Of a stretch of 64,000 bases of DNA, positions 14,447-62,464 are shown piece by piece. Source of the stretch: Eledone cirrhosa. Lineage: Eukaryota. The stretch is taken from contig OZ024743.1 in the NCBI GenBank assembly GCA_964016885.1, positions 166,346,001-166,410,000 on the forward strand, in the 5' to 3' direction. The notes under the pieces were generated by a model. The model ran no database searches. It had not been told where the DNA came from and saw only the letters and a list, made by a program, of their open reading frames with translations. The stretch's first letter is position 1; each line of letters starts with the position of its first letter. The translations under genes were made by a program, and so were the position numbers.

Positions 14447-17400
14447 TATAACGTGGATTACGTGTCAATGGAGATATTAATAGAGTTATCGATTCAGAAG
14501 GCAATGAGGAAAATGACATAATCCATTATAACAAAAATTCCCTTTTATTTGTTGTACAAATATGGAATCGAAATAATAAGAGAAGGTTGAGCAAGTCTTC
14601 ACATCGTATTGGCTGCATATTCCAGTGGAGATGTGAAATAATGTGGCATATCAAATGTCGGACGTCTTGATGCTACCAGGTCGTTCAGTGAACTTTGTCT
14701 CTCTGCCTTGTCAACCAACTGTGTCTCTGGTCCAAATAGTCCAGCAACTTGTCTCAATCCACTGAGGGCCTTGATTGGCTCACACTTCAGCCAATTTACC
14801 TCTGTGCCACCATTCTTCCGCCAAAGAAAAATACATTTAATTCTGTTCACTACAGTACCCTCCGTTTAGATCGAAGATCGATATCAATACATGAGTAGTG
14901 CTAAATATGCAATATGTCTACATGACATCAAACAATAAATAATCATCGGGTACACCGAGAAAACACATACATGAATACAACCAAGAAAAATGAAACATAA
15001 CATAATTGAACAAGCAAAAGTAATTGTTTACATAAGAGTCAAAAGTTTGAACAATATCACAGTTCATATATAGATTGTTTTACTCAATCTCTGAGGCCAA
15101 TGTACTCTACGACCACTACGAGTCGTCGTAACACATGTGGGTGAAGGTAATGAAGGTGTGTGTGATATTGTGGGTGAGTATGCTTGTGAAGGTTCAACAT
15201 CAATGTATTGTATGTAGGGGGTGTATGGGGTTCAACTGGTGGAGCGTCTGTAAAGGCCTGTTTAATCCTATCTACAGAAACTGTTTCCTACCACAAATGT
15301 CTATGGTAAAAAGTTTGTCCGTTTTTGCCAGGACACGGTAGGGTCCTGTATAGGGTGGCACAAGTGGTCCTTTCACTGAGTCTTTATGTAGAAAAACGTG
15401 AGTCCAAGAAGTAATGTTTTTAGTAACCAAAGATTTAATCGTCTGTTGACGTGTTCCCATAGGCGGAAGATCATTGAAATATGATCGCAATCGGTTAATA
15501 TATAACGTAGGATCTTCCCGCGATGCGTCGACTGGGACTAACATCTGTCCCGGTAAGGATAAAGGTGTTCCGTACAGCAATTCCGCTGGGGAATATCCGA
15601 GATCCTCCCTGACCACTGCGCAACAGCCAAGAAGAACTATTGGTAGATATTCACTCCATCTTTGCTGGTCGGGATAAGCACGCAATGCTGCTTTTAATTG
15701 TTGATGAAAGTGTTCTATCATGCCATTTGACGCCAGGTGGTAACTAGTAATTCTAATACAATGTATCCCTAAGATTTTAGAAAGTTCATGGAAGAGATGT
15801 GATTCAAATTGTCCGCCATGGTCAGTGGTGATCGTGGAAGGGACACCGTATCGCGATATCCAGCCAGACATCAGAGCTCGTGCTACCGATTCTGCTGAAA
15901 TCTCTTTGAGAGGAATGGCTTCAGGCCAACGTGTAAAACAGTCGATACACGTAAGAAGGTATGTATATCCATGACTGACCGGCCAAGGTCCAACTAGGTC
16001 GATATGAATATGGTCAAAGCGGGCATCTGGAGCGTTGAATGTGCCCAGAGGTGCTTGAATGTGTTTGTGCACCTTAGACTTCTGGCAAGGTATGCAGGAA
16101 CGAGACCATGCAGTGATATCTCGTCTCATATTTGGCCAAAAGAATCTAGCCGTAATGAGTTTCACTGATGAATGGATTCCAGGGTGTGAGAGGTTGTGTA
16201 ACATGTCGAAAACTGTTCATCGATGAAGTTCCGGAACGAAGGGTTGAGGTGAATCAGTCGATATGTCACACAGGATGCTTGTGTCAGAATTGTGTACAGG
16301 TAATTGTTTGAATTTGCACGTCGCAATTTCGGTTGCAGATTAATCCAAATCGTCCAAAGCAGGCTGGTCAGCAGCGAGCAAACGTAGATCAATATCCGTT
16401 TTTGTCGATAGTGAGTTGATAGGTAAACGAGATAATGCATCTGCCGCTATATTCTGTGATCCGGGAATATGGCGTATATCACTAGTGAATTGTGATACAT
16501 AATCTAAATGTCGAGTTTCACGTGGCGAGTATCTTTCGGGTTTCGCTTTGAGAGCAAATGTCAAAGGACGATGGTCCGTGAAAATCGTAAACGGGCGTCC
16601 TTCCAACGAATGCTGGAAGTGTTTGATTGCCAAGTACATCGCTAACAGTTCTCTGTTAGCGATGTATCGGGTTTCAGCGGGTTTAAGCTGTTTTGAGAAA
16701 TATGCAAGTGGTTGCATCTTCTGGTTGTGGTACTGTTGCAAAACTGCACCTACTGCTGTGCCTGATGTATCAACGACCAGGGAAAACTGGGCATCAGGCA
16801 CAGGATGTGCAAGCAGGGTGACATCAGCTAATTCCTGTTTCACTCTGGAATAAGCTTCGAGTTGAGCAGGGTCTCAAGAAATGACTCATTCTTCTTTCTT
16901 CGGTTCCGCAACAGTTCAGAAAGAGGTGCTATGCGCTCAGGACATGGAATAAAACGACGGTAATAATTTAGCAGTCCCAAGAACTGACGTAATGATGTAG
17001 GAGGAGGTAATTCTTGAAGAGCTTTCACTTTATCTGGTGGAGGTGATATGCCTGTAGGACTAATGGTGTGTCCTAGAAAAACTAGCGAAGACGCACCAAA
17101 TATACACTTCGCGGGGGTTAATGCGAACTTGGTACTTCTTAAAACGTTGAAATAACAAACGAAGGTGTTTAACATGTTCCTCTGGAGATGTGCTAGCAAC
17201 GAGTACGTCGTCTATATAGCAGATTACAAAATCCAGGTCTTTGGTGATTTCGTCCATGAAGCGTTGAAAGGTACTAGCGGCGTTGCGTAGACCAAAGGGC
17301 ATCGTTAGGAACTCAAAAGCACCAAAGGGTGTAGTGATAGCAGTCTTCGGAATATCAGCTGGATTAAGTGGCATCTGATGATACGCTCTGACTAAATCCA

Positions 17401-19120
17401 GCTTTGAAAAAACTGTGCATCCATGTAAGGAAGAAGCAAAATCCTGAATGTGTGGGATCGGGTACTGTCATCACGTTTAATTGGCGAAAGTCCCCAGTCG
17501 GACGCCAATCGCCGGAACGCTTTGGAACCAAATGCAAAGGAGAGGCCCACGGACTGGAGGAAGGGCGTATGATCCCCAACTGCAGCATGTGGTTAAATTC
17601 AGCCTTCGCCGTTTTCAATTTCTTCGCAGGGAGGCAGTGAGAGCGTGAAAATACAGGAGCGCCAAGTTTCGAAATGTTTTGTGGAGTGAGTAGGCTTGCT
17701 TACCACAAAATTCAAATTTGTCAATTCCGGGAAGGAATTTAGAAGCGACTGGAAAGGGTCCTCGGAAGCGGCGATGAAGAGTACCGGGCTGATAGATGAG
17801 ACAGTAGATCTCAAACCCAGAACGGAGAGTTCCGTATTAGCATCCAACAACCGGCGTCTGTGCATATCCACTAAGAGGTTATAGTGGTGCAGGAAATCCG
17901 AGCCTAGAATAGGGTAAGGCAAATCAACGACTGTGAAAATCCATGTGAAGTCTCTTCGCAATTCCAGGTTCAAAGAACGAGAAATTTGACCATACATGGA
18001 GATAGGAGAATGATTTACGGCTTGCAGAGAAATGGATAAAACTGGCGATTTCTCTTTGAGAAGTTTTAGCGGCCATATGCTGGAAGCAGCGCCTGTATCC
18101 ACCAGACATCGAGCTTGGGAAAACGTGTCAGTTATGAAGAACGCACGATTATTTGGGAGTGTCAGAGGAGACTGTGCCGTGCTCAGGTCTCCTGAAATTC
18201 GTTTCCCTGGTTGGAAAAGGAACAGGGCTGTCTACAACAGCGTGCCGCCGCACCAAAACGGCTGTGATAGTATCTCAGTCCTGGTTTATTGTGCGGTGGT
18301 GATGTGGCAAGGGCAAACGGCTCTGGAAGCGACGTCTGGGCGATTGAGCCCTGGAGAAACTTGTGCTATGGCTTGAAGAATTGCCGTAGACGTGCGCGAC
18401 TGATTGGTGTGAATGGCAGCTGCTGGAGAGAACGATGAAACATTATTTTGTCCGCCGAAGACGCCAGTTGCTCGACTGAGCTAGTCTCCATCATAGGCGC
18501 CAATATCGCCTGGACATTGGGCGGCAGCCTCGAAAAGAAAAGCCGTCTCAGGAGGGCGCTGTCAGCTGGAGCGTCCTCCGCCAGTTCTTTCATTCGACGC
18601 AGGAACTGGCTCGGCGTCCGATCACCCAAATGCTCGTCATTTACTAGGGTTTGAAATCTCTTCTCTGCGGACAACGTGGTATGCCACAGAACCTCACGCT
18701 TAACGCTCTCATAGGTGGCTCTATAATGTGTCGCTGGAGATATTAATATAGTTATCGATTCAGAAGGCAATGACGAAAATGACATAATCCATTATAACAA
18801 AAATTCCCTTTTATTTGTTGTACAAATATGGAATCGAAATAACAAGAGAAGGTTGAGCAAGTCTTCACATCGTATTGGCTGCATATTCCTGTGGAGATGT
18901 GAAAGAATGTGGCATATCAAATGTCGGACGTCTTGATGCTACCAGGTCGTTCAGTGAACTTTGTCTCTCTGCCCTGTCAGCCAACTGTGTCTCTGGTCCA
19001 AGTAGTCCAGCAACTTGTCTCGATCCGCTGAGGGTCCTGATTGGCTCACACTTCAGCCAATTCACCTCTGTGACACCATTCTTCCGCCAAGGGAAAATAC
19101 ATTTAATTCTGTTCACTACA
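14447..19120 (-). mobile_element. Ty3/Gypsy LTR retrotransposon, decayed, both LTRs present
   Basis: LTRs at 18722-19120 and 14447-14854, both starting TGTAGTGAAC on the minus strand; PPT-like CGGAGGGTAC; TSD GGTA/GGCA. Gypsy domain order: gag (LGDRTPSQFLRRM), protease (DTGA), RT (CYIDD), RNase H (RELLA..TDH..NIAADALSR), integrase ([22 protein letters not shown]); many frameshifts. Confidence 0.96.
15272..16204 (-). pseudogene. Gypsy integrase ORF (310 aa)
   Basis: HHCC zinc motif, DDE core ([21 protein letters not shown]) and GPY/F motif. Confidence 0.92.
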
Positions 19121-25814: not shown

Positions 25815-28552
25815 ATGAGACAATCACTCGAGATCACCGATAGTTCAGGGAGGACACCAGTCAGATAGATTTTATCCTTACCGGAAGACAAGATAAAGCG
25901 ACTGCTGTAAACGCAAAGTCACTTTCTGGTGAAGAATGCACCTCCCAACATAACCTAATGATTAGCGACCTTATGGTCAGGACTAGACGATCTCGATGAC
26001 AGGACAACCTTGAGGAGAAGAATGTGGAAGTTGAAGAACCCCACTGCCAGAAACAAATTTAGAGGCATGTTACTTGATGCTTTCAACAGTAAGGAAGAGC
26101 AAATAGAGACATACAATATAGAGGAATAGTGGGAATTTCTTAAAGATAACCTACTGAAGGCGAAAAATGAAATATGGGGCTGGAGAAGACTTCTAGGGAG
26201 AAGCAGAGTTACTTGGTGGTGGAACAGTAGGGTGGAGGAAGTAGAGAACACTAGTAGGTGGCTAGAAGAGAAGCTAGGCAACAAGTGTACTTCGCAAGAA
26301 GGGAAGCAGAAGATAAAAAATGTAAGCATGTTTTGCAATGCGAGGACAAAAGATGTGAGGTGTTTAGGATTGCGAGACAATGTGTCAAGGAAAATTGTGA
26401 TATTGTTGGGGAGAAGTATGTCCGTAATGATAACAGAGTACTTGCCATAACTGATGCTGAAAAGAAGATAGCATGGAAGTGCCACTATGAAAGACTACTA
26501 AATGAGAATAAATGAGATGAAGATAGTCTTCCACAAGTTGATTCAACATAGGGACTGGTTGTGCAAGTTCGTAGTAATAGTAAGGTAAGCAAAGATATGA
26601 AGATAGACAAGGCAGCTGGACCTTTGGGGATAGTTGCTGAGATGCTGAAAGAGTCAGAGATGGTAGGACATACCATAATCACCCGTATAGTAAACCAAGT
26701 AATAGAAAATGGTGTCATACCTAATGACTGGCATAGCAGCATCATCGTCAACTGCTGCAAGGGTGAAGGAGATGCTCTAGACAGAGAAAACTATAAAAGC
26801 ATTAAGTTGGTTGACCAGGTTGTGAAGGTCAACAAAAGAGTAATCGCACAGCTGATTAGGGACTAAGTTAACCTAGATGCAATGCAGTTTGGATTTGTGC
26901 CAGGAAAAAGTACCATGGATGCTCTCTTCCACATGAAGCGACTGCAGAAGTACCTAACTAAAAATAATCCCTTCTACTTAGCTTTTGGTGACTTGGAGAA
27001 AGCCTTTGACAGAGTCCCCTGCTCCATTATCTGGTAGGCTCTTAGAAAACTAGGAGTAGATGAGTGGCTTGTGAAAGATATACAAGCCATGTATAGAGCA
27101 ACAGTCAGCAACGTTAGAATTAACAATGACTATAGTGTACAGGTAGGTGTTCATCAGGGCTCTATCCTTAACCCCCTCCTGTTTATTATTGTCCTACAGG
27201 CTATAACAGAAGAGTTTAAGATTGACTGCCCATGGGAACTTCTATATGCAGATGATCTAACTCTCATAGCTGAATCTACGGCAGAACTAGAAGAAATTCC
27301 AAACATGGAAGCATGGCCTAGAATCAAAAGGCCTTAAAGTTAACTTGTCTAAGACTAAAGTATGTAGAAAGGAAAATAATTCACAGGTTCCCTCTGGGAA
27401 AAGGCCTTGCTCAGTGTATAGGAAAGGAGTACGTAAAATTCCATTCTATGTCCCAAATGCAAGCTATGGGTTCATAAAAGATGTAGTGGGATCACAAGCA
27501 GGCTATCAAAGAATGTAGGTTTATATGTGGCTGATGCTCAGGTGCAGTAAGTAGCAAATGCCCACTGGATGATATCTCCTTCAACTGCCCAGATGGTTCT
27601 ATAGAAATAGTAGACCCATTACCTGGGTGATAAAATCAGCAGTGGAAGAGGGTGTTTTGAAAGTACAGTAGCCAAAGTCAGAATGGGATGGAAAAAGTTC
27701 AGAGCTAATACCGCTGTGGCCACAAAAGGTTTCTCTCTAAAAATGAAAGGCAGATTGCAGGATGCTTATATACGAACAGCAATGTAACATGGCAGTGAGA
27801 CATGGGCATTGTGTGCAGAGGACCTGTGAAGATTGGAAAAGAACGAAGGATGCATGCTCCGGTGGATGTGTAATAGTAATATACGTAAACAGCAAAGCAT
27901 AAATGAACTAAGTGATAAATTAGGCATAAGAGGGATCAGATGCAGTATACTAGAGAGGAGATTGCATTGGTATGGTCATGTGATGTGTATGAAGGATGAC
28001 AGCTGTATAAAAAAGTGCAGGGCAATCAAAACTGATGGAAGCTACGGCGTAGGTAGACCCAGGAAGACCGGGGATGAAGTGATAAAAGCTGACCTTGCGC
28101 AATTTCACCTCTCTAAGACAAGATCACTGGATCGAGATCTTTGACGTTGTGCAGTAATACAGAAACATGCCTTCCATGCACATGGACTCAAATATACATC
28201 TTGTAGGCACCTCTTAACCACTATACCCACTTCTGTCCACACCACCATTACACTGTAAAGTTATCTTGGTATCACAACAAAAAAGCATCCAGCCCACACT
28301 GTAAAGTGGTTGTATGGGTGTCACAACAAAATTCACCCAGCTCACACTGTAAAGTGGTTGTGTAGGTTGTCATGACAAAAGGACCCAGCACATGTAAATG
28401 TGGTTAGTGTTAGGAGGGGCACCTAGCTATAGAAACTTAGCCAGAAATAGTTCTATATGAGCAAGACATGGTCACCTGACGCAACTTGCCTCAAATGAGA
28501 CAACCCATCTAACCCATGCTAGCGTGGAAAATGAATGTTAAACGATGATGAT
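25815..28552 (+). mobile_element. Decayed RTE/BovB LINE (family B), 5'-truncated
   Basis: AAGPLGIVAEMLK, QGSILNP, YADD and RRLHWYGHV in frameshifted ORFs; tandem 3' UTR module; (ATG)n tail. Confidence 0.92.
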
Positions 28553-30700: not shown

Positions 30701-31349
30701 CAAGTAAATAAACACATAAATAAATAAACAAAAACTTCTGTTTTCCTTCGTCTCTCCTTCTTTGCGCCTGTTCTTGCTACAATCAGATATTTATCTCTTC
30801 GCTCTCCCTTGTTAGGTCTCCTTTTTAACTTCTCTCTCTCTCCCACTGGTTACTGTAATTTACATGTACTACTGTCTCGTGTTTCCCCCTCTCTATCGGT
30901 ATGTTTTTCTTTAGTTTATTTTCTTTTTCTGTCGTTCTCTTCGCTATCGTCTGTTTTTTTCTTTTTTCTTCCCTGATAATTATTCCTCTTAATTATCAAT
31001 GCACTGTGGTGAGATGTACTGTCTTTAATGCGCCAAAATATCAGTGACCCACAGAAGACAGCTAAAGAGCTGGAATTGTCCTATATGTTTGTGTTTCTGT
31101 CATGTTTTCATAATAATAATATATATATATATAGGGAGCAGCGGCTGTTAGGGCAAGACGTGTTTTCTCGGGCTCTGCTAGAGTCAGCAGCAACACACAA
31201 CCACGTGTTGCTACACACACACACGAGGAAAGAGAAAATTTATGAGACCAATAGAGATATGTACATTTATATATTTATATCTAGATATTGCTATTATCAT
31301 TTACAGTCCCTCTGTGTTTAATGTATGTTCATTAGTATATGTGTTGTTA

Positions 31350-31660
31350 TTTCTTATTTCTGCTTACATTTTACATATATACATATATATATCTATATAT
31401 ATGCTTGCGTGGACCCCTCTCAAAAATTCGTTGGATTTTCTAATTGGATACCCCGAAACTGGATACCAACACTGAATACACCTGAACTTCTACCAGGAAA
31501 TCTTTCGTTGTTATTTCTGCTTGCATTTTACATATATACATATATATATCAATGCTTGCGTGGACCCCTCTTAAAGATTCGTTGGATTTTCTAATTGGAT
31601 ACCCCGAAACTGGATACCAATCACTGAATACACCTGAACTTCTACCAGAAAATCTTTCAT
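31350..31660. repeat. Tandem duplication of a ~155-bp unit
   Basis: atgcttgcgtggacccctct...cttctacca..aaatctttc occurs at about 31401 and 31552. Confidence 0.9.
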
Positions 31661-31789
31661 ATCAGTGAAAATTTTCTTTTCTTTGCTTCATATATATATA
31701 TTATATATACTTGTCCGCCATTGCAAAAGGCCATAAATTCAAAATTTTGAAGAGAGAAGTGATCTATGAACTTGTAGCATCTCACTGAC

Positions 31790-32490
31790 CCCCCCGCCAC
31801 CACAATAACAATAACGCCTACACTCGCTCCCCACCATCACCACATTACTCTAAGGTCGCTGTCCTGTCCCCTGTTGACATACTGCTGACTCTCTTTTGAT
31901 GTATGTATGTGTATATACATATGTGTATGTGTGTGTATAGGTATATCTCAGTGGATACGACCAGATTTGAACACAGCAACAACTACAACAACAACAACAA
32001 CAACAGCAACAACACCATCGTCTGTGTTGAATGTGTGTGTGTGTATGTATTTGTATATATGCGACAGCAATAACAGCATCAACACCATTGTCTGCAGCAA
32101 CAGCAGCAGTGAAATGAAGAACAACAACAACAGCAACAACTACAATAACAACTACAGCACCAACAACTGCCACCACCATCACTGACCATCCACCACCACC
32201 ACCGCCATTACCAGCGTAAAGCAAACAATTATTATTGTTATTATTATTATATACAAGCTGAACTGGACTGGGAAAGGTCAACAGTTGACATGATAGTGAT
32301 TTTGACTTTGACGATTTTGATTTTGTATCAGTACTGTCGGTAATATATGTATATATATGTGTTTGTGAGTGGTGTGTGTGATTGTATGCATGAATGAGTG
32401 TTGGTATGTGTGGTTGTGGTTTGTATGCATGAGTATTGGTGTGTGAGTGTTTGTGTGTGCGTCGTGTCAATAATTTTTTTTTTTTTTTTT
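31790..32490. repeat. Compound microsatellite block (CAA, TG, CAC, ATT, poly-T)
   Basis: Direct inspection. Confidence 0.9.
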
Positions 32491-32491
32491 T

Positions 32492-35400
32492 AATGACCAT
32501 GCTGTAAAATGGAGGGGTAGAGAGGGCCCTTGAGTCTAGTAAGACATCCTCTCTAGTGCTGGTGGCACAAATAAAAGCACCCAATCCATGCTGTAAAGTG
32601 GCGCTGGTGTTAGGAAGGGCATCCAACCAGTGTATCAATGCCAAAACGCTTATCAGCACAGCAACAAATAGGAACAACAACAAAATATGAAGACGTCGCA
32701 TCTCAGAGTTGCAACACTTAATGTTGGCACTCTCAGAGGTAGATCTGCTGAAATAGCGGAGATACTGGAGAGAAGGCAGGTGGATGTGTGCTGCGTGCAA
32801 GAGGTGAGATGGAGAGGTGCCTCTGCGAGACTAGTCGTAGGCAAGCGTCTTAGCTATAAGCTATTCTGGGTAGGTAAGGATGATGGGTTAGGGGGAGTAG
32901 GCATTTTCCTGGCTGAGAAATGGATCAATAAGACAATAGAGGTAGTTCGAGTTAGTAATCGAATAATTAAGCTTAGATTAGTTGTAGGTAGGAGACTACT
33001 GACAATCATCTCGGTCTATGCTCCCCAAGTAGGCCTAGGCAAAGATGAGAAAGACTGCTTTTATGAGCAACTTTTGCAAACAACCACAATGACAGAGGAC
33101 GGAGACATCGTTATGCTAGCAGGAGACTTCAATGGTCATGTTGGACAGCTCCAGGATGGTTACACTGGGGTACATGGTGGGCACGGTTACGGTTCAAGAA
33201 ATGAAGGAGTGAGACTTCTTGAATTTTGTGATGCAAGTACATTGACTATTTGCAACACAAACTTCCAGAAACCTGCCAATCACCTAATAACCTACAAATC
33301 TGGTGAGCACATAAGCCAGATTGACTTCCTGCTAGTTAGGCAGCGGGACAGGCAGATAGTGTCTAATACCAAGGCATACCCTGGGGAAGAATGTACCCCA
33401 CAGCATAGGTTAGTTGTTAGTGATATCTCAGTAAGCAAGAGATGGAATGAGACATATAGGAAGGTGTGGAGAAGAAAGGTCTGGAAGCTAAAAGACCTTT
33501 CACTAAAATACAAATTTAGGAAAGCCCTTCAAGATGTATATGACGAAAAAGAAGACGATTTAGAGACGTATGACATAGATAATAACTGGAAGTTCTTACG
33601 TGACAACTTGCTGCAGGCTACTGATGAAACCTGTGGCTGGAGCAGAGCTCCAACCAGACAGAGAGTGACCTGGTGGTGGAACAGCACAGTAGATAAGGCT
33701 ATTAGAGACAAAAGACTAGCATGGAAGGCTTGGAAAAAGGGTGGGAGTAGGGAAGAATATACAGCCACTAAGAGAGAAGCTAGACGTCAGGTGTACTTAG
33801 CACGCAGGGAGGCAGAGAGTAGGAGGTTTGCCAATGTTCTGCGACGGGAAGATCAGAGGCGTGCGGTGTTCCACATTGCAAGGCAGTGTGTCAATGCAAA
33901 TCAGGATGTTGTTGGAGATAAATGTGTCCGGGATGATGCCGGTGTACTTAGTGTCACGAATGACCAGAAAAAGGAGGCCTGGAAATGTCATTATGAGAGA
34001 CTGATGAATGTGGAGAACGAATGGGAGAGAGAGAAATTACCCTTGGTAGATCCAACAGAGGGACCAGCTATTGAGATTGACGAATATAGGGTCCAAGAGG
34101 CGATTAGGGAAATGAAAAATGGTAAGGCGGCCGGACCATCGGGAATAGTTGCTGAGATGCTGAAGGCATCAGGGGACGTAGGCACTAAACTGGTTGCACG
34201 CATCATCAATCAGGCTATATATGGTGGTGTCATACCCAAAGACTGGTGCAGCAGTATTCTCATAAATTGCTACAAAGGTAAAGGGGATGCTTTGGAGAGG
34301 AGCAATTATAGGGGTATAAAACTGATAGATCAGGTTATGAAAGTGGCAGAAAGGATTTTAGCACAACTAATTAGAGAAAGGGTCAAACTAAATGAGATGC
34401 AGTTTGGTTTTGTGCCTGGGAAGAGTACAACAGATGCCCTCTTCTTGGTGAGACAAATGCAAGAGAGATTCTTAGAGAAGAATAAGCCACTATACTTAGC
34501 CTTTGTTGACCTAGAGAAGGCCTTTGATAGGGTACCCCGATCTGTCATCTGGTGGTCCCTAAGGAAGCTAGGTGTTGAGGAATGGCTTGTGAGGACAGTG
34601 CAAACTTTGTACAGAGGTACTCTCAGTAAAGTCAGGGTAGGAATGGAGTTTAGTGAGGAATTCCAGATACAAGTAGGAGTACATCAGGGTTCGGTCCTCA
34701 GCCCGCTCTTGTTCATTATAGTCCTCCAAGCCATAACAGAGGAGTTTAAGACTGGCTGTCCATGGGAACTTCTCTATGCTGACGATCTGGCTCTTATAGC
34801 AGAATCAGTAGAGGAGCTAGAGAATAAATTCCGGCTATGGAAACAGCAGTTGGAAGCAAGAGGACTGAGAGTAAATCTAGCTAAGACAAAAGTGTTGATG
34901 AGTAGAAAAGAGGACAAAACCCTGATTCCGTCAGGGAAATGGCCATGTTCGATATGCAGAAAAGGAACTGGCATAAATTCTATAAAATGCACACAATGCA
35001 GGTCCTGGGTACACAAGAGATGTAGCGGGATAGCAGGCAAACTAACAGGTAGGGAGAAATATGTATGCAGTAGATGTACAGGGAAATTAGACAGTAGAAG
35101 TCGCACTGATAGACACATTTTTCAAATGCGAGAGGGCGCTATAGAAGTGGTGGATAGCTTCCGGTACCTAGGAGATCAGATTAGCATGGGAGGAGGGTGT
35201 TCCGAGGCCATAGTATCTAGAATAAGGACGGGTTGGAAGAAGTTTAGGGAGCTGCTTCCTCTGTTGACAAAGAAGGGTTTCTCCCTGTGTACGAAAGGCC
35301 GGTTGTATGATGCCTGTGTGAGGAGCGCGATGCTGCATGGTAGTGAGACATGGGCAGCAACCGCAGAGGATATGCGACGGCTGGAGAGAAATGAGGCAAG

Positions 35401-35779
35401 CATGCTCCGTTGGATGTGCAGTGTAAATGTGCGTGAACGACCCAGCATAAATGTGTTGAGAGAGAAACTGTGTCTGAGAGGGATAGAATGTAGTGTACAG
35501 GAGAGGAGACAGAGGTGGTATGGACATGTGATGTGCATGGAGGATGACCGATGGGTGAAGAAGTGCCAGGAAATGCCAGTTGAAGGAAGACGTGGTAGAG
35601 GTAGACCACGAAAAACATCGGCGGAGGTGGTGAGAACAGACCTCAGATCATTGAAAATCACGGCGGAGATGACGAGGGACCGTGACGAGTGGAGAGATGC
35701 TGTGCTGAATAAGACCCGTCCCACCCTTGCAAGCAGGGAAAAGCGGACGTAAAATGATGATGATGATGATGATGATGAT
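32492..35779 (+). mobile_element. RTE/BovB-clade LINE (family A), antisense in a TTF2 intron
   Basis: Short 5' UTR with the AAAAGCACCC..GTTAGGAAGGGCATCC module, a single long ORF, and an (ATG)n tail directly after the stop codon. No clear TSD. Confidence 0.95.
32687..35752 (+). CDS. RTE ORF: APE endonuclease, reverse transcriptase, C4HC3 finger, C-terminal domain (1021 aa, uninterrupted)
   Basis: TLNVGTL, VQEVRW, YAPQ, GDFNGH, IDFLL, QHRLV (APE); AAGPSG, NYRGIKL, QFGF, FVDLEKAFD, QGSVLSP, YADD, FRYLG (RT); RWYGHV, RGRGRPRKT. Confidence 0.97.
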   Translation: MKTSHLRVATLNVGTLRGRSAEIAEILERRQVDVCCVQEVRWRGASARLVVGKRLSYKLFWVGKDDGLGGVGIFLAEKWINKTIEVVRVSNRIIKLRLVVGRRLLTIISVYAPQVGLGKDEKDCFYEQLLQTTTMTEDGDIVMLAGDFNGHVGQLQDGYTGVHGGHGYGSRNEGVRLLEFCDASTLTICNTNFQKPANHLITYKSGEHISQIDFLLVRQRDRQIVSNTKAYPGEECTPQHRLVVSDISVSKRWNETYRKVWRRKVWKLKDLSLKYKFRKALQDVYDEKEDDLETYDIDNNWKFLRDNLLQATDETCGWSRAPTRQRVTWWWNSTVDKAIRDKRLAWKAWKKGGSREEYTATKREARRQVYLARREAESRRFANVLRREDQRRAVFHIARQCVNANQDVVGDKCVRDDAGVLSVTNDQKKEAWKCHYERLMNVENEWEREKLPLVDPTEGPAIEIDEYRVQEAIREMKNGKAAGPSGIVAEMLKASGDVGTKLVARIINQAIYGGVIPKDWCSSILINCYKGKGDALERSNYRGIKLIDQVMKVAERILAQLIRERVKLNEMQFGFVPGKSTTDALFLVRQMQERFLEKNKPLYLAFVDLEKAFDRVPRSVIWWSLRKLGVEEWLVRTVQTLYRGTLSKVRVGMEFSEEFQIQVGVHQGSVLSPLLFIIVLQAITEEFKTGCPWELLYADDLALIAESVEELENKFRLWKQQLEARGLRVNLAKTKVLMSRKEDKTLIPSGKWPCSICRKGTGINSIKCTQCRSWVHKRCSGIAGKLTGREKYVCSRCTGKLDSRSRTDRHIFQMREGAIEVVDSFRYLGDQISMGGGCSEAIVSRIRTGWKKFRELLPLLTKKGFSLCTKGRLYDACVRSAMLHGSETWAATAEDMRRLERNEASMLRWMCSVNVRERPSINVLREKLCLRGIECSVQERRQRWYGHVMCMEDDRWVKKCQEMPVEGRRGRGRPRKTSAEVVRTDLRSLKITAEMTRDRDEWRDAVLNKTRPTLASREKRT

Positions 35780-35782
35780 ATA

Positions 35783-37214
35783 CGGTAGACATAAATGCAA
35801 TTCAATTCAAGCACTGAATGTCATGTTTCTTCATCGAAATAAGGATGACGGAATATAATTAGAATGAGGAAAATGCGCAGTTGTAGATGTTAGTCCTTTA
35901 TTAATAAATCTGTGATACATATTTCAATGACGATCATGATCACTTGATTATTTAATCAATTCTCGTGATTTCATTAGACACCAAAATTGAGTAAAAGGTT
36001 ATGTTTCCAAGGCAATCCTATATTCAAGGGAACAGACAAAAAATTATGTTTTTGCTGGGATTGTCCATCCTTTTGTGAGCTTCAGAACATCCCGACAGCT
36101 CTGCACAGATGCAGAAGTGGGGGAAGTTGACCACTTAACCACCACCCAAATTAATACAACCCTAGGTGAGTCAGCCCACACACCAGTCCCCCACCACCTC
36201 AGCCAGCAAACTGATACGGTCACAGAGAGTACAATTCAGCCACAGAGTTGTTGCTTACTGTTAATTTCAGTATCTAGCAGAATTTTGTGTTTGGGGCGAG
36301 GGAATATACTGACCATTAACCACAAAGTGAGAATATAACTTAATGTTATGGTTAATAAAATTACAGATCAACAATTAAAAGTTAAAAACTAAAAATTAAA
36401 AAATTTAGACAGTCTAAAAATAATTGTTTCTACTTTTGGTACAAATAATATCAAACGGATTGATGTGTACATTAGTAATAGAGATTGGGTTCAAAATTGG
36501 ATATTAAATGTTGATAGTTGGTGATTAATAATTGAATGTTATTAATTTATTATGAAGCCAGACTAGCAAGAACTGGCATCTTAACAAAAATGACAGGTGA
36601 AATTTAAAGTATAGAATGTAATAATTAGATAATCATATAGTTGATATCCTAGTTAATCCAGTAGAGACCAATAGGAATACATGTAGAAGGAAAATGTAGG
36701 AGGAAGTATAAAAAAGAAAAGATAAGATAAAATGAAAAGAGGAACAAAGGAATTATAAGGAAAAAATATGTGACAAATGTCTGAGTGGGAATAAAGTAGA
36801 GGTGACGAATTACAAAGAGTCCAGTTATATTCACAGTACTTTGAGTGTTTTGGTCAGTTCAGTCCCAGCCAGGTGCAAATAGACTTCTCCAGCTCTCCAT
36901 GGCTAGGTGAGGCAGGATGGGACGTTTCCAAGCTTTAGTACGAAATAAAAGGTGTTGCGGGAAAATAAGAAGATATCATTGCTTTTGGTTCTCTCATTAA
37001 TCCGGTCGAAAGTTGGTGCATAATTATATTTTCAACTGTTAGGGATATCCAACAGTAGAGGACATTTTTGGGTGTAGTTGATAGCCGATGCCTCACTTCA
37101 TCAAATTTATTTACAACTTTGCATTTTCCTCATTCTAATTAAATTCCATCATCCTTATTTTGATGAAGTAACATGACATCGAGTGCTTGAATTGAATTGC
37201 ATCTATGTCTACTG
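35783..37214. mobile_element. Non-autonomous DNA transposon with ~105-bp TIRs (Tc1/mariner-like)
   Basis: CGGTAGACATAAATGCAATTCAATTCAAGCAC..GAATGAGGAAAATGC at 35783 is the reverse complement of ..GCATTTTCCTCATTC..GTGCTTGAATTGAATTGCATCTATGTCTACTG ending at 37214; TA on the left, TG on the right. Confidence 0.82.
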
Positions 37215-45498: not shown

Positions 45499-45649
45499 TT
45501 CAATATAACTCATACATACATATGTGTGTGTATGTATACATACATACATGTGTGTGTGTATGTATACATACATACATGTGTGTATGTATGTATATATATA
45601 TATATACACACACACTAAACCCATGCTAGCGTGGAAGATAGATGTTAAA

Positions 45650-46076
45650 CGGAATAGGAAGAGGCGAAATAAATCATCCAACCACCTCAAACAGGTGACA
45701 AAAAAGGCAGTGCTTCAATTTGAGCAGCGGATAGCAACCAGCCCTGACAGTATGGTGTTCTGGAAGTATGTTCACTCAAAGCAGAGGCCTCACTCTCCAG
45801 TTGGTCCTCTTCACAATCCCCACACAAGCCAGGTTACTCACGACCCCAAGGAATGCGCAGAGCTCATTGCTGAATGCTATGCAGGCATTTTCACTATTGA
45901 AGACCAGAGTGTACCGTCTCCACCACCTATGACACCGGATTCTATCACAACCATGGAATTTACAACTGCAATGCTGTGATGTCACCTAAAAAATAAATGC
46001 AACCATGCCTCTCCTGGTCTTGATGGTGTTATGTACGTGCTTCTTAAACGTGGTGGGTACTTCCTTCTGCACCAGC
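45650..46076 (+). mobile_element. CR1-clade LINE fragment
   Basis: FWKYVHSK..., YAGIFTIED, SPGLDG; 45862-46076 is nearly identical to 47253-47467. Confidence 0.82.
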
Positions 46077-47151: not shown

Positions 47152-47249
47152 AGAGAAAGTTGGTTGATTTAAAATCTGCCGACTTTTACATAACAGATGT
47201 CAAGTACTCAACGGTTTATGTTTATTTGGAGTTTTATTATAATAATAAA

Positions 47250-48035
47250 CATGCTCATTGCTGAATGCTATGCAGGCATTTTCACTATTCAAGACCAGAG
47301 TGTACCGTCTCCACCACCTATGACACCGGACTCTATTACAACCATGGAATTTACACCTGCAATGCTGCGACGTCACCTAAAAAATAAATGCAACCATGCC
47401 TCTCCTGGTCTTGATGGTGTTACGTACCTGCTTCTTAAACGTGGTGGGTACTTCCTTCTGCACCAGCTATCACGCTTCTTCCAATTCTGTCTGAACAACG
47501 GTGCTACTCCAGAACAGTGGAAAACTGCCAGTGTCATTCCTCTGTTCAAAAAGGGTGACCGCACATCACCTGTGAACTATCGTCCAGTCAGTCTTACTAG
47601 TTGCATTGCCAAACTGATGGAATCCTGTGTCAGAGAAACACTTTGGAACTTCTGGAACTCTCACAGTCTTATCTGGCCCTCGCAATTTGGATTTATCCCC
47701 AACTCCAACATGCCTACAAAGTCAGAAAACAGCACAGTTCCCATGACTTTCTGAAACATTTTTTCACACTCAGAGTTGCTGAAGCATGGAACAAACTACC
47801 TGCATCAGTTGTTAGCTGTCGAGACACTGCATCCTTTAAAACCTCCATGCTTCCCGAGATTCGCCAACACTACACCTGATGTTCCCCCTCCATATACATA
47901 CACACGTATATCATGATTCATGCACTATTCACTTCCCTGACATTTGTATATTATTCTATGTACTATACATGCACCTTTGACGAGTTGTAGTGCACCTGAG
48001 CACTTTAAACAATAATTTCATTATTATTATTATTA
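47250..48035 (+). mobile_element. CR1-clade LINE fragment with internal deletion and 3' end
   Basis: WKTASVIPLFKKGDR..NYRPVSLTS..QFGF jumps to HFFTLRVAEAWNKLP; (ATT)n tail. Confidence 0.88.
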
Positions 48036-52911: not shown

Positions 52912-53893
52912 ATCATCATCATCATCATCGTTTAACGTCCGTGTTCCACGCTTGCATGGGTTTGGACGGGGGTTTTCCCACTTGAGGCAAGAGTGATTGT
53001 CTTGCTCGCATAGGACTGTCTGGCGGGTTTTCTACAGCTGGATGCCCTTCCTAACACCAACCACATTTATAGTGTGGGGCTGGGAGGTTTTTACCGTGTT
53101 GCCTACACGGCCACATTACAGCGTGGACTGTCTGGCGTGTTTTCTACAGCTGGATGCCCTTCCTAACACAAACCACATTTACAGTGTGGGTTTGGGAGGT
53201 TTTTACCGTGTTGCCTACACGGCCACATTACAGCGTGGACTGTGTGGTTTTTTTTTGTCGTGACACCTACACGATCTCATTTGTTTCGGCCTGGATGTTG
53301 TGGCACCAACATAACTTTACATTGAAAGGGGCGGTGTGGTGGGGTGGTGGGACGGGGGTGTATTTTGTTAGCGATGCCTACTGACTGTAGTAGGTTTTAC
53401 TTTGTATTTAGGTAAGGCGAGTCTTCTCTATTACTGAGTACCGCCAAAGGTCTCGGTCCAGTGACATTGTCTTGGAGAGGTGTAAGTGTGTGAGGTCGGA
53501 ATTTATCAGCTCGTCCCAGGTTTTTCTGGGTCTGCCTACTCCGTAGCTACCGTCTATCTTTATTGCCCTGCACTTTGTTATACAGCTGTCGTCTTTCATG
53601 CGCATCACGTGACCATACCAACGTAGCCTTCTCTCGAGTAAACAACATCTGATCCCTCTTATTTCTAATTTTTTCCTTAGTTCGCTTATGCTTTGCCGTT
53701 CACGTATGTTACTATTACACATCCAGCGGAGCATGCAAGCTTCGTTCCTCTCTAGTCTGCGTATATCCTCTGCACACAATGCCCAGGTCTCACTGCCATG
53801 CAACATTGCTGTTCGTATGCAGGCATCATACAACCTGCCTTTCATTTTTAGGGAGAACCCTTTAGTGGCTAATAGTGGTATAAGCTCTCTGAA
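52912..53893 (-). mobile_element. 5'-truncated young RTE family B copy
   Basis: Nearly identical to 58710-59683 including the 3' UTR; (ATG)n tail. Confidence 0.94.
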
Positions 53894-54019: not shown

Positions 54020-56112
54020 CAGTAACAGATTTAGAGATATTTTACTTGGCAGTAAAGAGCAGATAAGAGACATTCAATATAGAAGAGCACTGGGAGGAAT
54101 GTACCTCCCAAATTAACCTAAAAAATAACCTACTTAAGGCGACAGACAAGATCTGCAAATGGAACAAGACTACAGGGAGAAGGAGAGTGACTTGGTGGTG
54201 GAACAATAAGGTAGATGAGACAATTAAGGCCAAGAGTCAGGCATGGAAACAATGGAAGAACAGAGAAAGTAGAGTACGCTACACAGAGGCCAGAAAGGAA
54301 GCTAGACGACAAGTATACTTAGCTAGAAGGGAAGCGGAGGATAAAAAATTCAAACATGTTTTGCAGCATGTGGACCAGAAACAGGATGTGTTTGGGAATG
54401 CGAGGCAGTACGTTAGAGAGAATTGCAATATCATGGGTGAGAAGTGTGTGTGGGATGATAAAGGTACACTTGACCTCACTGGTGCCGAGAAGAAAGCTGT
54501 GTGGAAGAGCCATTATGACAGATTACTGAATGAGGAGAATGTGTGGGAGAAAAAGACCCTACATCAAGTGGATTCCATAGAGGGCCAGCTGTACAAGTCA
54601 GCAGTAGTGTAGTAAGGAAGGCAATTAAGGATATGAAGACTGGGAAGGCAGCTTGCCCATCAGGAATAGTTGCCAGGATGCTGAAAGCATCTGGGTCAGT
54701 AGGTCACACTATAACCACACGTATTGTTAACCAATACTAGATGGTGTCATACCATATGATTGGCACAGCAGCATCATTGTCAACTGCTACAAGGGTAAAG
54801 GAGATGCACTAGATAGAGGAAACTATAGATATAACACTGATGGACCAGGTCATGAAAGTAACGGTAAGAGTTATAGCACAGTTGATTAGGGACCGGGTAA
54901 ATCTAGATGGGATGCAGTTTGGATTGTGCCAGGCAAAAGCCCCACTGATGCTCTTCCTTGTGAAGCAGTTACAGGTAAAGTACCAAGCTAAAAGTAAGCT
55001 TCTCTACCTGGCATTTGTTGATCTGGAAAAAGCTTTTGACAGAGTGCCCTATGCCATAATCTGGTGAGTTCTTAGAAAACTAGAAGTAGATGAGTGGCTT
55101 GTGAAGGCTGTACAAGCCATGTATAGGGGAGCAGTCAGCAAAGTTAGGATTAACAATGACTATAGCAAGAAATTAAGTATACAGGTTGGTGTCCACCAGG
55201 GCTCTGTTCTTAACCCTCTCCTGTTTATCATCATGTTACAGGCTATAACTGATGAGTTTAAGGCCAGGGAGCTACTACCACTGCTAGCTACAAAAGGCTT
55301 TTCTCTCAAAATGAAAGGTAGACTATATGATGCGGGCATATGAACAGCAATGTTACATGGTAGTGAGACCTGGGCATAGATTGGAAAGGAATGAAGTTTG
55401 CATGTTCTGATGGATGTGTAATAGTAATATACGAGAATGGCGAAGCATAAAGAAACAGAGGAAAACTAGGCATAAGAGGAATCAAATGCAGTGTGCAGGA
55501 GGAGACTGCGTTGGTATGGACATGTGATGCATATGAAGGATGACAGTTGCATAAAAATGTGCAGAGTGTTCAAAGTTGATGGAAGCCGTGGTGTGGGGAG
55601 ACCCAGGAAGATATATGACGAGGTGATAATATCTGACCTTGCCCAATCGCACCTCTCAAAGGTGATAACATATGACCGAGATCTCTGCATTACGCAGTAA
55701 TACAGAAGACCGAAACAGAAGCATATATACAGTATGCACCAACCCAACCCACCCTCCCATGAGGACAGGCCGAAGTATACATCCAGTAAAGCCCCCAGCC
55801 CACACTGTGAAGTGGTCGTGTAGGTGTCACAAGAAAAAGTGACCCAGTTCACACTATAAAGTGGTCGTGTTGGTGACATGACAAAAAGCACCCAGTCCAC
55901 ACTGTAAAGTGGTTGTATTGGTGATATGACAAAAAGCACCCAGTCCTCACTGTAAATGAGGTTGGGGTTAGGAAAGGCATCCAGCTGTAGAAACCTAGCC
56001 CAAATCAGTTCTTTTTGTGCAAGACATGGTTACCTGCCCTAGCATTGTCCTCAACAAGACAACTCGTGTAACCCATGCTAGCATGGATAAATGGACATAA
56101 AACAGTGATGAT
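54020..56112 (+). mobile_element. Decayed RTE family B copy with internal deletion
   Basis: TWWWN.., FVDLEKAFD, QGSVLNP, then ITDEFK|ARELLPLL, a deletion removing YADD and the C4HC3 finger; tandem 3' UTR module. Confidence 0.9.
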
Positions 56113-56257: not shown

Positions 56258-56968
56258 ATAATAATAATAATGAAATTATTGTGTAAAGTGCTCAGGTGCA
56301 CTACAACTCGTCAAATGTGCATGCATAGTACATAGAATAATATACAAATGTCAGAGAAGTGAATAGTGTATGAGTCATGATATACATGTGTGTATGTGTA
56401 TGGAGGGGGAACATTAGGTGTAGTGTTGGCGAATCACGGGAAGCATGGAGGTTTTAAAGGATGCAGTGTCTCGACAGCTAACAACCGATGCAGGTAGTTT
56501 GCTCCATGCTTCAGCAACTCTGAGCGTGAAAAAATGTTTCCGAAAGTTATGGGAACTGTGCTGTTTTCTGACTTTGTAGGCATGTCCACGTGTGTTAGAC
56601 ACATGGAAATCAAAAAGGTACTCAGGGTTGTTGTTGGCAAGATGGTTAACAAGTTTGTGGGTGTTTACCAAGTCAGTTGCCAGGCGTCGGAGCTTCAATG
56701 TATCCATGCCCAGGGAAGCAAGGCGCTCAGAGTATGGTAGATGCCTGATGGAGGGTATTTGCTTGGTTGAACGTCTCTGAACAGTTTCCAGGTGGTCAAT
56801 GTTCTGAGCAAGATAGGGGTTCCAGACTGGTGATGCAAATTCTAAGTGTGGCCGCACCATAGCCATGTACAGGCTTAAATAGATAGCTGGAGAGCGGCTG
56901 ACAAAGGTCTTGCTGAGTGATGCGAAGACACCCTCAGCCCTCTTGACAATTTTAGAGATGTGCTTCAT
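56258..56968 (-). mobile_element. CR1-clade LINE 3' fragment
   Basis: VRPHLEFASPVWNPY, LETVQRR, TRGH, FFTLRVAEAWSKLP; (ATT)n tail; same family as 47250. Confidence 0.92.
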
Positions 56969-57419
56969 TCTTCTATAGAATATGTATTTGGTATATATAT
57001 ATATATATACCGTGTTTCTTGTGTGATATATGGCTCTTTCGCTCTCTGTATATACATATATCTTTATATAAATAATTACAACAGTGACATAAACCGGTAC
57101 TCAAGTTTCGTTAGGTTCTGGGACCCAATTTTTTCAGCCTGTCATGAGAAAAATGGAAAACCAAGATGGCCACCTATGGTTGATTGTGTTTTCCCTTTGG
57201 GGCTATAACAAGAGTTCATGCAGGGGCAAGTAATTTAGAAAAAGTATAGAAAAGAAGGAGTTAATTTAAAGAAGGATAAGGTCTAAGGAAGGTAACTTTT
57301 GAGAGACCACAGTCAATTCAGAATGGAAATAGAAGCACAATTTCTTCTAGCTAACTCAAGGGATCACCCTACTATAATTTAGCGCTGAGGAACAGCGGCT
57401 TCTCTAAATATATTACATA

Positions 57420-58709: not shown

Positions 58710-61700
58710 ATCATCATCATCATCATCATCGTTTAATGTCCCTGTTCCACGCTTGCATGGGTTTGGACGGGGGTTTTCCCACTTGAGGCAAGAGTGGTTG
58801 TCTTGCTCGCATAGGACTGTCTGGCGGGTTTTCTACAGCTGGATGCCCTTCCTAACACCAACCACATTTACAGTGTGGGGCTGGGAGGTTTTTACCGTGT
58901 TGCCTACACGGCCACATTACAGCGTGGACTGTCTGGCGTGTTTTCTACAGCTGGATGCCCTTCCTAACACCAACCACATTTACAGTGTGGGACTGGGAGG
59001 TTTTTACCGTGTTGCCTACACGGCCACATTACAGCGTGGACTGTTTTTTTTTGTCGTGACACCTACACGATCTCATTTGTTTCGGCCTGGATGTTGTGGC
59101 ACCAACATAACTTTGCATTGAAGGGGGCGGTGTGGATGGGGTGGGACGGGGGTGTATTTTGTTAGAGATGCCTACTGACTGTAGTAGGTTTTACTTTGTA
59201 TTTAGGTAAGGCGGGTCTTCTCTGTTACTGAGTACCGCCAAAGGTCTCGGTCCAGTGACATTGTCTTGGAGAGGTGTGTGTGAGGTCGGAATTTATCAGC
59301 TCGTCCCAGGTTTTCCTGGGTCTGCCTACTCCGTGGCTACCATCTATCTTTATTGCCCTGCACTTTGTTATACAGCTGTCGTCTTTCATGCGCATCACGT
59401 GACCATACCAACGTAGCCTTCTCTCGAGTAAACAACATCTGATCCCTCTTATTTCTAATTTTTTCCTTAGTTCGTTTATGCTCTGCCGTTCACGTATATT
59501 ACTATTACACATCCAGCGGAGCATGCAAGCTTCGTTCCTCCCTAGTCTGCGTATATCCTCTGCACACAATGCCCAGGTCTCACTGCCATGCAACATTGCT
59601 GTTCGTATGCAGGCATCATACAACCTGCCTTTCGTTTTTAGGGAGAACCCTTTAGCGGCTAATAGTGGTATAAGCTCTCTGAACTTTTTCCATCCAGTTC
59701 TGACTCTAGCTACTGTACTTTCAGAGCACCCTCCCCCACTGCTGATTTTGTCACCCAGGTAACGGAAGCTGTCCACTATTTCTATAGAACCCTCTGCGCA
59801 ATTAAAAGAGCTAGTATTTTGTGGGCACTTGCTGCTACTTATTGCACCAGAGCACCGGCCACATGTAAAATCTGTGTTCTTAGTTAGCTTACCTGTGATC
59901 CCACTACATCTTTTATGCACCCATACTTTGCATTTGGGACATAAAATGGAGTTTCTAACTACGCCTTTCCTACACACTGAGCATGGCCATTTTCCGGAGG
60001 GGACCGGCGCCTTATTTTCTTTCCTACAAACTAGAACTTTAGTCTTAGCCAGGTTAATTTTAAGGCCTTTTGATTCTAGGCCGTGCTTCCATGTTTGGAA
60101 TTTCTTCTCTAGCTCGGCCATTGATTCAGCTATGAGCGTTAGATCATCTGCGTATAGGAGTTCCCATGGGCAGCCGGTCTTGAACTCCTCTGTTATAGCC
60201 TGAAGGGCAATAATAAATAGTAGGGGGCTAAGAACAGAGCCCTGATGGACACCAACTTTTACGCTAAACTCTTCACTATATTCGTTGTTAATTCTAACCT
60301 TGCTGACTGTTTCTTTATACATGGCTTGTATGGCTCTCACAAGCCATTCGTCAACACCTAGTTTTCAAAGAGCCCACCAGATAATGGAACGGGGGACTCT
60401 GTCGAAGGCTTTCTCCAAGTCGACAAAAGCTAAGTATAGGGGTTTACTTTTAGCTAGGTACTTCTCCTGTAGTTGTCGTACAATGAAAAGAGCGTCTGTG
60501 GTACTTTTGCCTGACACAAACCCAAACTGCATTTCATCTAGATCAATTCTCTCTCTGATTAGTTGCGCTATTACTTTTTCCGTGACCTTCATGACCTGGT
60601 CAATTAATTTAATGCCTCTATAGTTACTCCTATCTAGGGCGTCTCCTTTACCCTTGTAACAGTTAACAATGATGCTGTTACGCCAGTCCTTCGGAACAAC
60701 CCCATTCTGTATGACTTGGTTTACTATCCGGGTGACCATGGTGTGTCCCACCGTACCGGAGGCTTTCAGCATCTCGGCAACTATTTCCGAAGGCCCAGCC
60801 GCCTTACCCATCTTCATATCTTTGATTGCCTTACTTATTATACTACCTTCGACTAACACTGCTGGTCCCTCTATTGGGTCAATGTGGGGGAGACTGTCTT
60901 TCTCCCATTTATTCTCCTCATTTAGTAGCCTTTCGTAGTGACACTTCCAAGCTACCTTCTTATCAGCGTCAGTGATGGCAAGCACGCCATCATCGTTAAG
61001 TACACACTTCTCCCCGACAATATCACGGTTTTCCTTGACACATTGCCTAGCAATCCTGAACACCTCACATTTTTGGTCCTCGCGTTGTAGAACATGCTTG
61101 AACTTTCTTTCCTCTGCTTCCCTCCTGGCCACTTGATAGTCTTCTCTACTTCCCCCATCCCGCCATGCTTTCCAAGCCTGCTTTTTGGCCTTGATTGACC
61201 CCTCCACCTTACTGTTCCACCACCATGTTACTCTCCTCCTGCCTACAGGCCTGCTCCAGCCACAGACTTTGTCTGCCGCCATCAGCAGGTTTGCTTTCAG
61301 GAATTCCCACTGTTCCTCTACCTTGTACGACTCTAATTGCTCTTCCTTACTGTCGAAAGCATCAAGTAATATGCTTTGAAATTTATTTCTGGCTGTGGGA
61401 TCTTTTAGCTTCCATATTTTTCTCCTGAGGATAGTCCTCTTCTGCTGTCTAGTACGTCTCGTCCTGACTATGAGGTCGCTAATTATCATGTTGGGAGGTG
61501 CATTCTTCATGGGGGAGGGATTTAGTGTTTACAACAGACACTCTGTCACGTCTTCTGGTAAGGATATAATCTACCTGGCTGGTATGTTCTCCTGATCTGT
61601 AGGTGATCAAGTGATTGTCTCGTTTTTTGAAGTTAGTGTTACAGATAGTTAGGTTGTTTGCATCACAGAATTCCAGGATTCTGGAGCCTTCCTCGTTTCT

Positions 61701-62354
61701 AGTACCAAACCCATAGCCTCCGTGGATTTCGTCATAGCCGTCACAATGTTGTCCAACGTGACCATTTAGGTCGCCAGCAATAATTATATAGTCACTGTCG
61801 GTTATTTGGGAGGTAGTGAGCATCAGTGTCTCATAGAATCTGTCTTTTATAGTGCCAGGCAGTCCGGATTGGGGCGCGTATGCAGATATTACTGTCACAG
61901 TAGTTCTGTTTAGAACAAGTCTTATTTTAATTATTCTGTCATTCACTCTATTTACATCTATTATCTTATCCACCCATTTTTCTGCTAACATGATTCCTAC
62001 CCCACCTATCCCATTGTCATTCCCCACCCAGAAAAGCTTATAGCAACGTTTTTTACCCACAATGAATCTAGCAGACCCGCCCCTCCACCTGGTCTCTTGG
62101 ATACAGCAAACATCAACCTCCTTACGTTCAAGCAATTCTACAACCTCGTTAGAGCGGCCTTTTAAGGTGCCTACGTTCATGGTACCAACTCTGAAGTTTT
62201 GGATTGTGTTTGGAGGATGGGGCGCAGGGAGGGGTGAGGGGAATGAGTTTGGGGTTATGTTGGCCATCCGCGGCCGAAACAAAGAGGAGGGGGCCTTGCC
62301 CCTTCGTCCGGCAGCATGAGGTGAATTTGTCGTTATCTTTGGCATTGTCATCAA
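58710..62354 (-). mobile_element. Near full-length RTE/BovB LINE (family B) with few frameshifts
   Basis: Consecutive ORFs 61479-62354 (APE), 60365-61510 and 59225-60340 (RT with YADD and C4HC3 finger), ~500-bp 3' UTR, (ATG)n tail. Confidence 0.96.
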
Positions 62355-62464
62355 GTGTCCAGATTCTTCAGACTCTCCAGAAATTCCTTAGTCCATCCAT
62401 CATATCGAAAAGCAGCCAGTAGTGATAGCATAGGCCGTTGACTTGTGATTGGTCCAAACAGTAA

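Follow-up and report, generated by a model that had tools for sequence, protein, structure and literature searches.

A predicted Pygopus-like PHD finger within the reverse transcriptase domain of an RTE retrotransposon sub-lineage, seen in Eledone cirrhosa

The 64,000-nucleotide stretch of DNA analysed here (hereafter the window; Eledone cirrhosa assembly GCA_964016885.1, contig OZ024743.1, positions 166,346,001–166,410,000) carries a full-length copy of an RTE-clade LINE, named family A, at ~31134–35779 on the forward strand. This copy consists of a 5′ untranslated region (UTR) of ~1.55 kb, one open reading frame (ORF) and an (ATG)n tail. The stop-free frame at 32672–35752 (+) encodes 1026 amino acids, with its first Met at residue 6, and displays the RTE-clade architecture, a single ORF in which an APE-type endonuclease precedes the reverse transcriptase (RT). 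The endonuclease domain occupies residues 14–245 (32711–33406, +; PF03372, E = 7.1e-7; PF14529, E = 3.4e-5), and the RT core up to motif 6 matches Pfam RVT_1 over residues 543–745 (34298–34906, +). The RT domain ends in the strand IEVVDSFRYLG at 35141–35173 (+), whose residues F830, Y832, L833 and G834 are invariant in the 122-row alignment described below, and a thumb/wrist region completes the protein. Inserted in the RT, at 34946–35077 (+), lies a C4HC3 finger (residues 759–802, net charge +9), recognized as a Pygopus-like PHD by its pattern, PF00628 and predicted fold.

The 5′ end of family A is common to three of five upstream stretches of other copies, where it comes after a (TA)n run, and the remaining two stretches are 5′-truncated. 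The 5′ UTR is repeat-rich and contains an internal 151-bp duplication (31356–31658) that is also present in other copies. No sense-strand frame of at least 150 amino acids was found in it, and there is no separate ORF1. An Rfam search of positions 31000–36000 returned nothing near a gathering score, and so gave no catalogued ribozyme for the 5′ UTR. At the other end, the (ATG)n tail begins 2–3 bases past the stop codon (35750–35779). With next to no 3′ UTR in family A, any signal for 3′ recognition must sit in the coding sequence; the 3′-terminal hairpin was no more stable than shuffled sequences (z = 0.60).

Family A is young and abundant. When the 3.0-Gb genome was searched with a 106-residue query covering the finger region, 59,962 first-look candidates came up, a figure that is not a copy number, and 148 of the 150 candidates scored were 100% identical to the query, many of them in frames of ~1024 amino acids. 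Thirty fetched loci shared 97.4–99.1% DNA identity with the window copy. The (ATG)n tail was present at 37 of 38 loci, with 5′ ends that vary and are often truncated. Apparent duplicated flanks, blurred by the (TA)n flanks, could be seen by eye at some loci (L011, L034). Additional finger-bearing RTE families are present in the same genome. Near-identical DNA (at least half of the sampled words) was detected in sequencing runs under 8 organism codes, and no RNA run was among the holders listed.

The window holds further finger-bearing copies. A broken copy of a second family, family B (~59225–62387), carries the same finger at 59852–59983 (−), also with a net charge of +9, and the identical spacing that had been reported for it was borne out. 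Over residues 755–802, the two fingers share 65% amino acid identity. Comparison of 48 codons gave a pS of 0.97, which is saturated, and a pN of 0.23, as expected of a finger that is under purifying selection at the sequence level. A third, decayed copy of a finger-bearing family was aligned by tblastn at 25850–28165 (+); part of its finger remains near 27445–27500 but is frameshifted. Scanning all six frames of the window for the C4HC3 pattern yielded two matches only, those of families A and B. Repeat units of 48 bp and 112 bp, located at 32570–32640, 28268–28405, 53013–53247, 55788–55956 and 58814–59044, adjoin the other finger-bearing copies and have motifs such as AAAAGCACCCA and GGAAGGGCATCCA in common with the family A 5′ UTR; they may represent 3′ UTR or SINE-like sequence belonging to these RTEs.

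The remainder of the window includes a 32-bp satellite at 1–7759 and 8105–8517 (~243 and 13 copies, 94–95% matches, strongly A-skewed) and a broken LTR-retroelement pol at 15272–18231 (−), whose frames for RNase H (PF17919) and integrase (PF17921, PF00665) follow a domain order that probably marks it as Ty3/Gypsy. CR1-type LINE-like fragments were observed at 45509–45979, 47194–47754 and 56414–57100, and the genome abounds in copies of a young CR1 family that has frames of 945 aa and ends in (ATT)n tails. Elsewhere in the assembly, one contig contains at ~19.3–23.7 Mb a cluster of many equal-scoring PHD matches of 138 nt, compared with 132 nt for the RTE finger.

The preliminary description of this DNA, made from its letters alone, had recognized the C4HC3 arrangement and assigned it to the PHD class. 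Indeed, the ligands are spaced C-x2-C-x10-C-x2-C-x4-H-x2-C-x14-C-x2-C, and Pfam, sequence matches and predicted fold all agreed with this identity. The family A finger scored 25.2 bits (E = 1.7e-5) and the family B finger 27.1 bits (E = 4.2e-6) against PF00628, both above its gathering cut-off of 24 bits. Three of four finger-bearing relatives scanned also exceeded the cut-off, and P0153 scored 20. Readings as a C1, DZR or RING domain were rejected, as their scores fell below that of PHD and below their own cut-offs. Sequence matches of the finger included KDM5B PHD3 (E = 2.5e-6), PHF13, BPTF and TAF3, and Pygopus fingers ranked first when the family profile or one typical member served as the query. 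An AlphaFold2 model of 60 residues adopted a PHD fold (mean pLDDT 79.5), and the rows returned for it by Foldseek were nearly all PHDs (best E = 3.9e-3, probability 1.00, none at E ≤ 0.001). Drosophila Pygo headed a wide fold search (Z = 5.8, rmsd 3.6, 53 aligned) whose top rows are of the PHD type at Z values of 5.8–3.4, modest figures that are to be expected from a very small domain. The agreement between sequence, ligand pattern and fold underlies our assignment of the finger as a PHD. Its ligand pattern suggests that it binds two Zn ions in a cross-brace.

The finger is located between GLRVNLAKTKVL and IEVVDSFRYLG, as first proposed, and its position within the RT was confirmed by the ends of the RVT_1 matches and by model alignments. 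In family A the match to RVT_1 breaks off at profile position 195 of 205; across P0001, P0002 and the four finger-bearing relatives scanned it ends at 193–195, and in the finger-less P0149 it runs through 205/205. The end of the KT motif is separated from YLG by 89–98 residues in complete finger-bearing relatives, and by 27–32 residues in typical finger-less ones (36 in the distant P0253). The two RT motifs had been said to lie normally 15–20 residues apart, and we found ~16–21 when the finger is absent. A predicted model of residues 420–1026 (pLDDT 92.1, pTM 0.88) matched L1 ORF2p and R2, and the finger within it showed pLDDT values of 86–95 in 10-residue blocks. Group II intron maturase constructs comprising the RT domain only aligned to the model as far as residue 427 (aa 846), in ranges that give ends only. 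Since the finger spans model residues 340–383, it should precede the YLG strand and lie inside the RT domain. Sequence and model together thus indicate that the finger splits the RT domain between motif 6 and the YLG strand, which we take to be RT motif 7, the primer grip. In L1 ORF2p, the primer grip forms part of the palm, the thumb comes next, and both hold the primer (PMC10830420). Complex prediction of the finger with the two RT halves returned a score of 0.00, uninformative either way.

Conservation was examined with residues 690–900 as the query, which gave 266 matches among 1003 candidates; because this query includes the finger, the search favours finger-bearing matches. The 120 homologues listed among these matches and the two window proteins formed an alignment of 122 rows. 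Seven ligands are invariant in all rows and Cys4 is present in 121, in line with the expectation that ligands would be conserved across families. W779 is kept in 120 rows, the full C4HC3 pattern in 119 and the 10/2/14 spacing in 101. The finger had a mean column conservation of 0.67, compared with 0.73 and 0.71 for the flanking RT parts and 0.36 for each of the two linkers. The finger had been described as kept in two divergent families; it is kept in both, but its range proved far wider and marks a whole RTE sub-lineage.

For a check independent of the finger, representatives at 50% identity were searched with the RT core alone and the best 150 were taken. Eighteen of these have a finger at 25 bits or more, with RT identities of 42–63%; those with a short loop reach at most 47% and include many near-copies of one family, and many others end ahead of the finger region. 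For phylogeny, 274 proteins were reduced to 214 scorable ones and 65 rows, and the careful tree comprised 38 rows plus one outgroup. In the RT-only tree, 22 finger-bearing and four finger-less rows formed one clade (support 95/90), which was separated from both CR1 and a Rex3-like row. Monophyly of the finger-bearing rows was not rejected (p-AU = 0.35), yet appeared in 15% of bootstrap trees. Other RT trees had a similar outcome. The root of the careful tree rests on long branches. These RT sequences would fit a single gain of the finger, with or without one loss. Judged by their motifs, the finger-less sister rows are presumably plant-type, teleost and nematode RTEs, with Bov-B and Rex3 more distant.

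The closest named homologue among those listed is an Octopus bimaculoides protein with 68% identity over residues 690–900. Few homologues have a named host (O. bimaculoides, O. vulgaris, Branchiostoma belcheri and the catfish Neoarius graeffei), and Mollusca and Cnidaria are the commonest phyla among the handful of recorded members of the Atlas clusters. One homologue labelled as bacterial is probably contamination. The catfish sequence, P0013, is a finger-bearing RTE ORF annotated as an slc22a21 isoform; it is nested among invertebrate-type rows in the tree and possibly reflects horizontal transfer. Searching the Atlas with the finger alone, RT clusters excluded, returned only short unnamed PHD clusters and no donor.

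Between Cys1 and Cys8, the net charge of the finger is positive in all 122 rows (+1 to +11, mean +6.1), compared with −6 to +6 (mean −0.9) in ten near-complete non-RTE PHDs of the same genome; five partial non-RTE matches (+3, −2, −3, −9 and −7) were left out of this mean. Lys or Arg recurs at residues 783 (116 of 122 rows), 782 (98), 790 (87), 764 (84) and 788 (75). Pocket residues were mapped by aligning the finger to Pygo and reading it against the published Pygo–H3K4me2 structure (PMC2726290). The counterpart of Y341 (residue 757) is aromatic in 119 of 122 rows, that of V350 (residue 766) is V in 108 and T in 14, that of A356 (residue 770) is S in 110, A in 10 and C in 2, and that of W366 (residue 779) is W in 120 and Y in 2. 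The Pygo pocket is ringed by acidic residues, and mutation of E360 abolishes H3K4me3 binding, according to the same paper. At these acidic positions, Asp or Glu is found in 4 of 122 rows for D352 and 8 of 122 for E360. The canonical K4me3-cage position Cys3-3 is S, A or C (110, 10 and 2 rows) and never Met or aromatic; the residues aligned with it in PHF13 and KDM5B are M or W. As far as residue identities tell, the Pygo-type hydrophobic K4 cavity appears to be kept and the acidic binding face lost.

Family A has a target preference of its own. A (TA)4 run lies within 30 nt of the tail at 22 of the 37 loci with a 3′ end (38 distinct loci, which are top-scoring copies and not a random sample), against a background of 80 in 3481 windows. 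Young CR1 copies show (TA)4 at 2 of 29 (30 loci, one of them without an end; Fisher p = 7e-6 versus family A). Adjacency to (TA)n is a real trait of the family. Bov-B and plant RTEs are also described as cutting at TA, with a Tn-TA signature (PMC13295347). We rejected the preference as evidence for the role of the finger, because finger-less RTEs cut at TA as well and because the tail, whose last bases are AT, could itself prime through microhomology.

Our leading reading, to which we give a probability of roughly 45%, is that the PHD acts as a positively charged accessory module that grips nucleic acid during target-primed reverse transcription, close to the primer grip and thumb. A Pygo-like finger would have been captured once into an insert-tolerant loop of the RT. 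Chain connectivity would place it near the primer and thumb, and its ligand would be nucleic acid, either target DNA or an RNA–cDNA duplex. This reading ranks first because a basic domain tethered right before the primer grip is most simply understood as a nucleic-acid contact, and because of the net positive charge, the fixed Lys/Arg positions and the loss of the D352 and E360 equivalents. The conservation of the finger, near the RT level and far above that of the linkers, was also counted in its favour, and the guess of RNA binding in the preliminary description is in keeping with it. Against nucleic-acid gripping, the K4-cavity residues that are kept would fit a methyl-lysine pocket, although they may also be structural. 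Charge separates the two classes incompletely, as one non-RTE finger reaches +6 and divergent RTE fingers carry only +1 to +3. Moreover, finger-less RTEs, four of them possibly nested in the clade, manage without it. Another possibility is that the Cys/His pattern arose by chance, or is carried along neutrally, within a variable loop. The loop does differ in both length and sequence, and the insert is missing from many RTEs; however, the near-complete invariance of the eight ligands, kept down to 42% RT identity, and the low pN beside a saturated pS between families A and B make a passenger highly improbable and largely refute it.

The kept cavity would also suit methyl-lysine reading of the Pygo type, in which the finger would anchor the retrotransposition complex on nucleosomes methylated at H3K4 and might rest its basic face on their DNA. 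Among solved PHDs, the nearest ones in sequence and in fold read H3K4me (Pygo1/2, PHF13, PHF23, KDM5B PHD3, TAF3 and BPTF), four of five Pygo K4-cavity residues (Y341, V350, A356 and W366) have conserved counterparts, and genome targeting has been proposed generally for the ORF1 PHDs of CR1/L2 elements (PMC4120745). However, D352 and E360 are not kept, the finger surface is basic like the H3 tail itself, the cage Met/Trp is replaced in every row, and the sole target preference seen, (TA)n microsatellites, is a feature of DNA sequence. Chromatin reading had been the first idea put forward for this finger, and the sequences would uphold its hydrophobic Pygo-type pocket but not its acidic residues, in a finger that is net positive throughout. 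We keep methyl-lysine reading as a possible, if doubtful, function because the hydrophobic cavity is intact, and it could coexist with a nucleic-acid grip. It is unlikely that the finger is instead a structural or protein-interaction module that packs on the palm, thumb or wrist, or engages a cofactor of the host in the way that Pygo binds BCL9, thereby stabilizing or regulating the single-ORF protein. Near-invariant small residues (G765, G767, N769, S770 and G789) do suggest tight packing, and pLDDT is somewhat higher for the finger in context than alone, but a purely structural role leaves the conserved exposed Lys/Arg positions unexplained, and the RT fold is complete in finger-less relatives.

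The non-LTR RT domain is usually seen as constrained, with accessory modules at the protein ends. The family resembles finger-less RTEs in its single ORF with APE and RT, its microsatellite-like 3′ tail and its 5′-truncated copies, and differs in ~65 extra residues, the PHD among them, that part motif 6 from the YLG strand. PHD-bearing CR1/L2 elements were reportedly described in a study by Kapitonov and Jurka in 2003. The top structural matches of CR1/L2 PHDs are likewise mostly Pygopus PHDs (2vpb, 3zpv), according to Metcalfe and Casane (2014, PMC4120745). In those elements ORF1 carries the PHD, or else it occupies the N-terminus of ORF2 or of a single ORF, upstream of the endonuclease, whereas here it splits the RT domain. 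The Pygopus PHD itself (PF27108; PDB 2vpe, 4up0, 3zpv) was the best sequence match for a typical family member and the best wide fold match; it shares the Y-P-C start and the V, small, I and W residues at K4-cavity positions. It differs in its acidic EVND loop and E360, which are replaced here by Gly, small or basic residues, and the family finger has a shorter loop 2 and a positive charge. The octopus RTE-2_OV and an active O. bimaculoides RTE (Petrosino 2022, PMC9115989) are likewise single-ORF and recently active, but a 1109-aa protein and a C2H2 finger are described, a comparison made by description only. The name of the O. bimaculoides element apparently derives from RTE-8_BF. In the main text of that article PHD occurs only in the funding note, and it is absent from the four of eight supplements searched.

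PHDs in LINEs and automatic PHD-plus-RT labels are thus already known: about half of the 120 listed homologues (66 by hand count) are annotated with PF00078 and PF00628, and Atlas clusters are already named ‘PHD-finger/Reverse transcriptase’. What appears new is the placement inside the RT across an RTE sub-lineage, which we regard as a real, well-conserved variant. Our search of open literature found no paper describing a PHD inside an RTE RT, and there is a fair chance that subscription papers, Repbase or Dfam already record this placement.

Finger-bearing RTEs may inflate PHD gene counts in such genomes, as 15 of the best 30 fetched PF00628 loci (from 37,938 first-look candidates) were RTE copies. 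The finger also offers a simple marker for the sub-lineage. Bolder, and in our view rather unlikely, is the proposal of a metazoan-wide LINE lineage with a bivalent nucleosome reader in the polymerase palm, in which the Pygo-type pocket takes methyl-lysine and the basic face holds DNA. If this were true, chromatin state would gate the priming of reverse transcription at the target, and the lineage would provide, among LINEs, a so far undescribed equivalent of chromovirus targeting that is built into the catalytic domain. RTE proteins serve as gene-insertion tools (PMC13708176), so that a targeting or nucleic-acid-gripping module at the site of the finger is directly testable. Collectively, a folded domain of 45 residues inside the RT, kept across phyla, points to a natural insertion-tolerant site in the palm.
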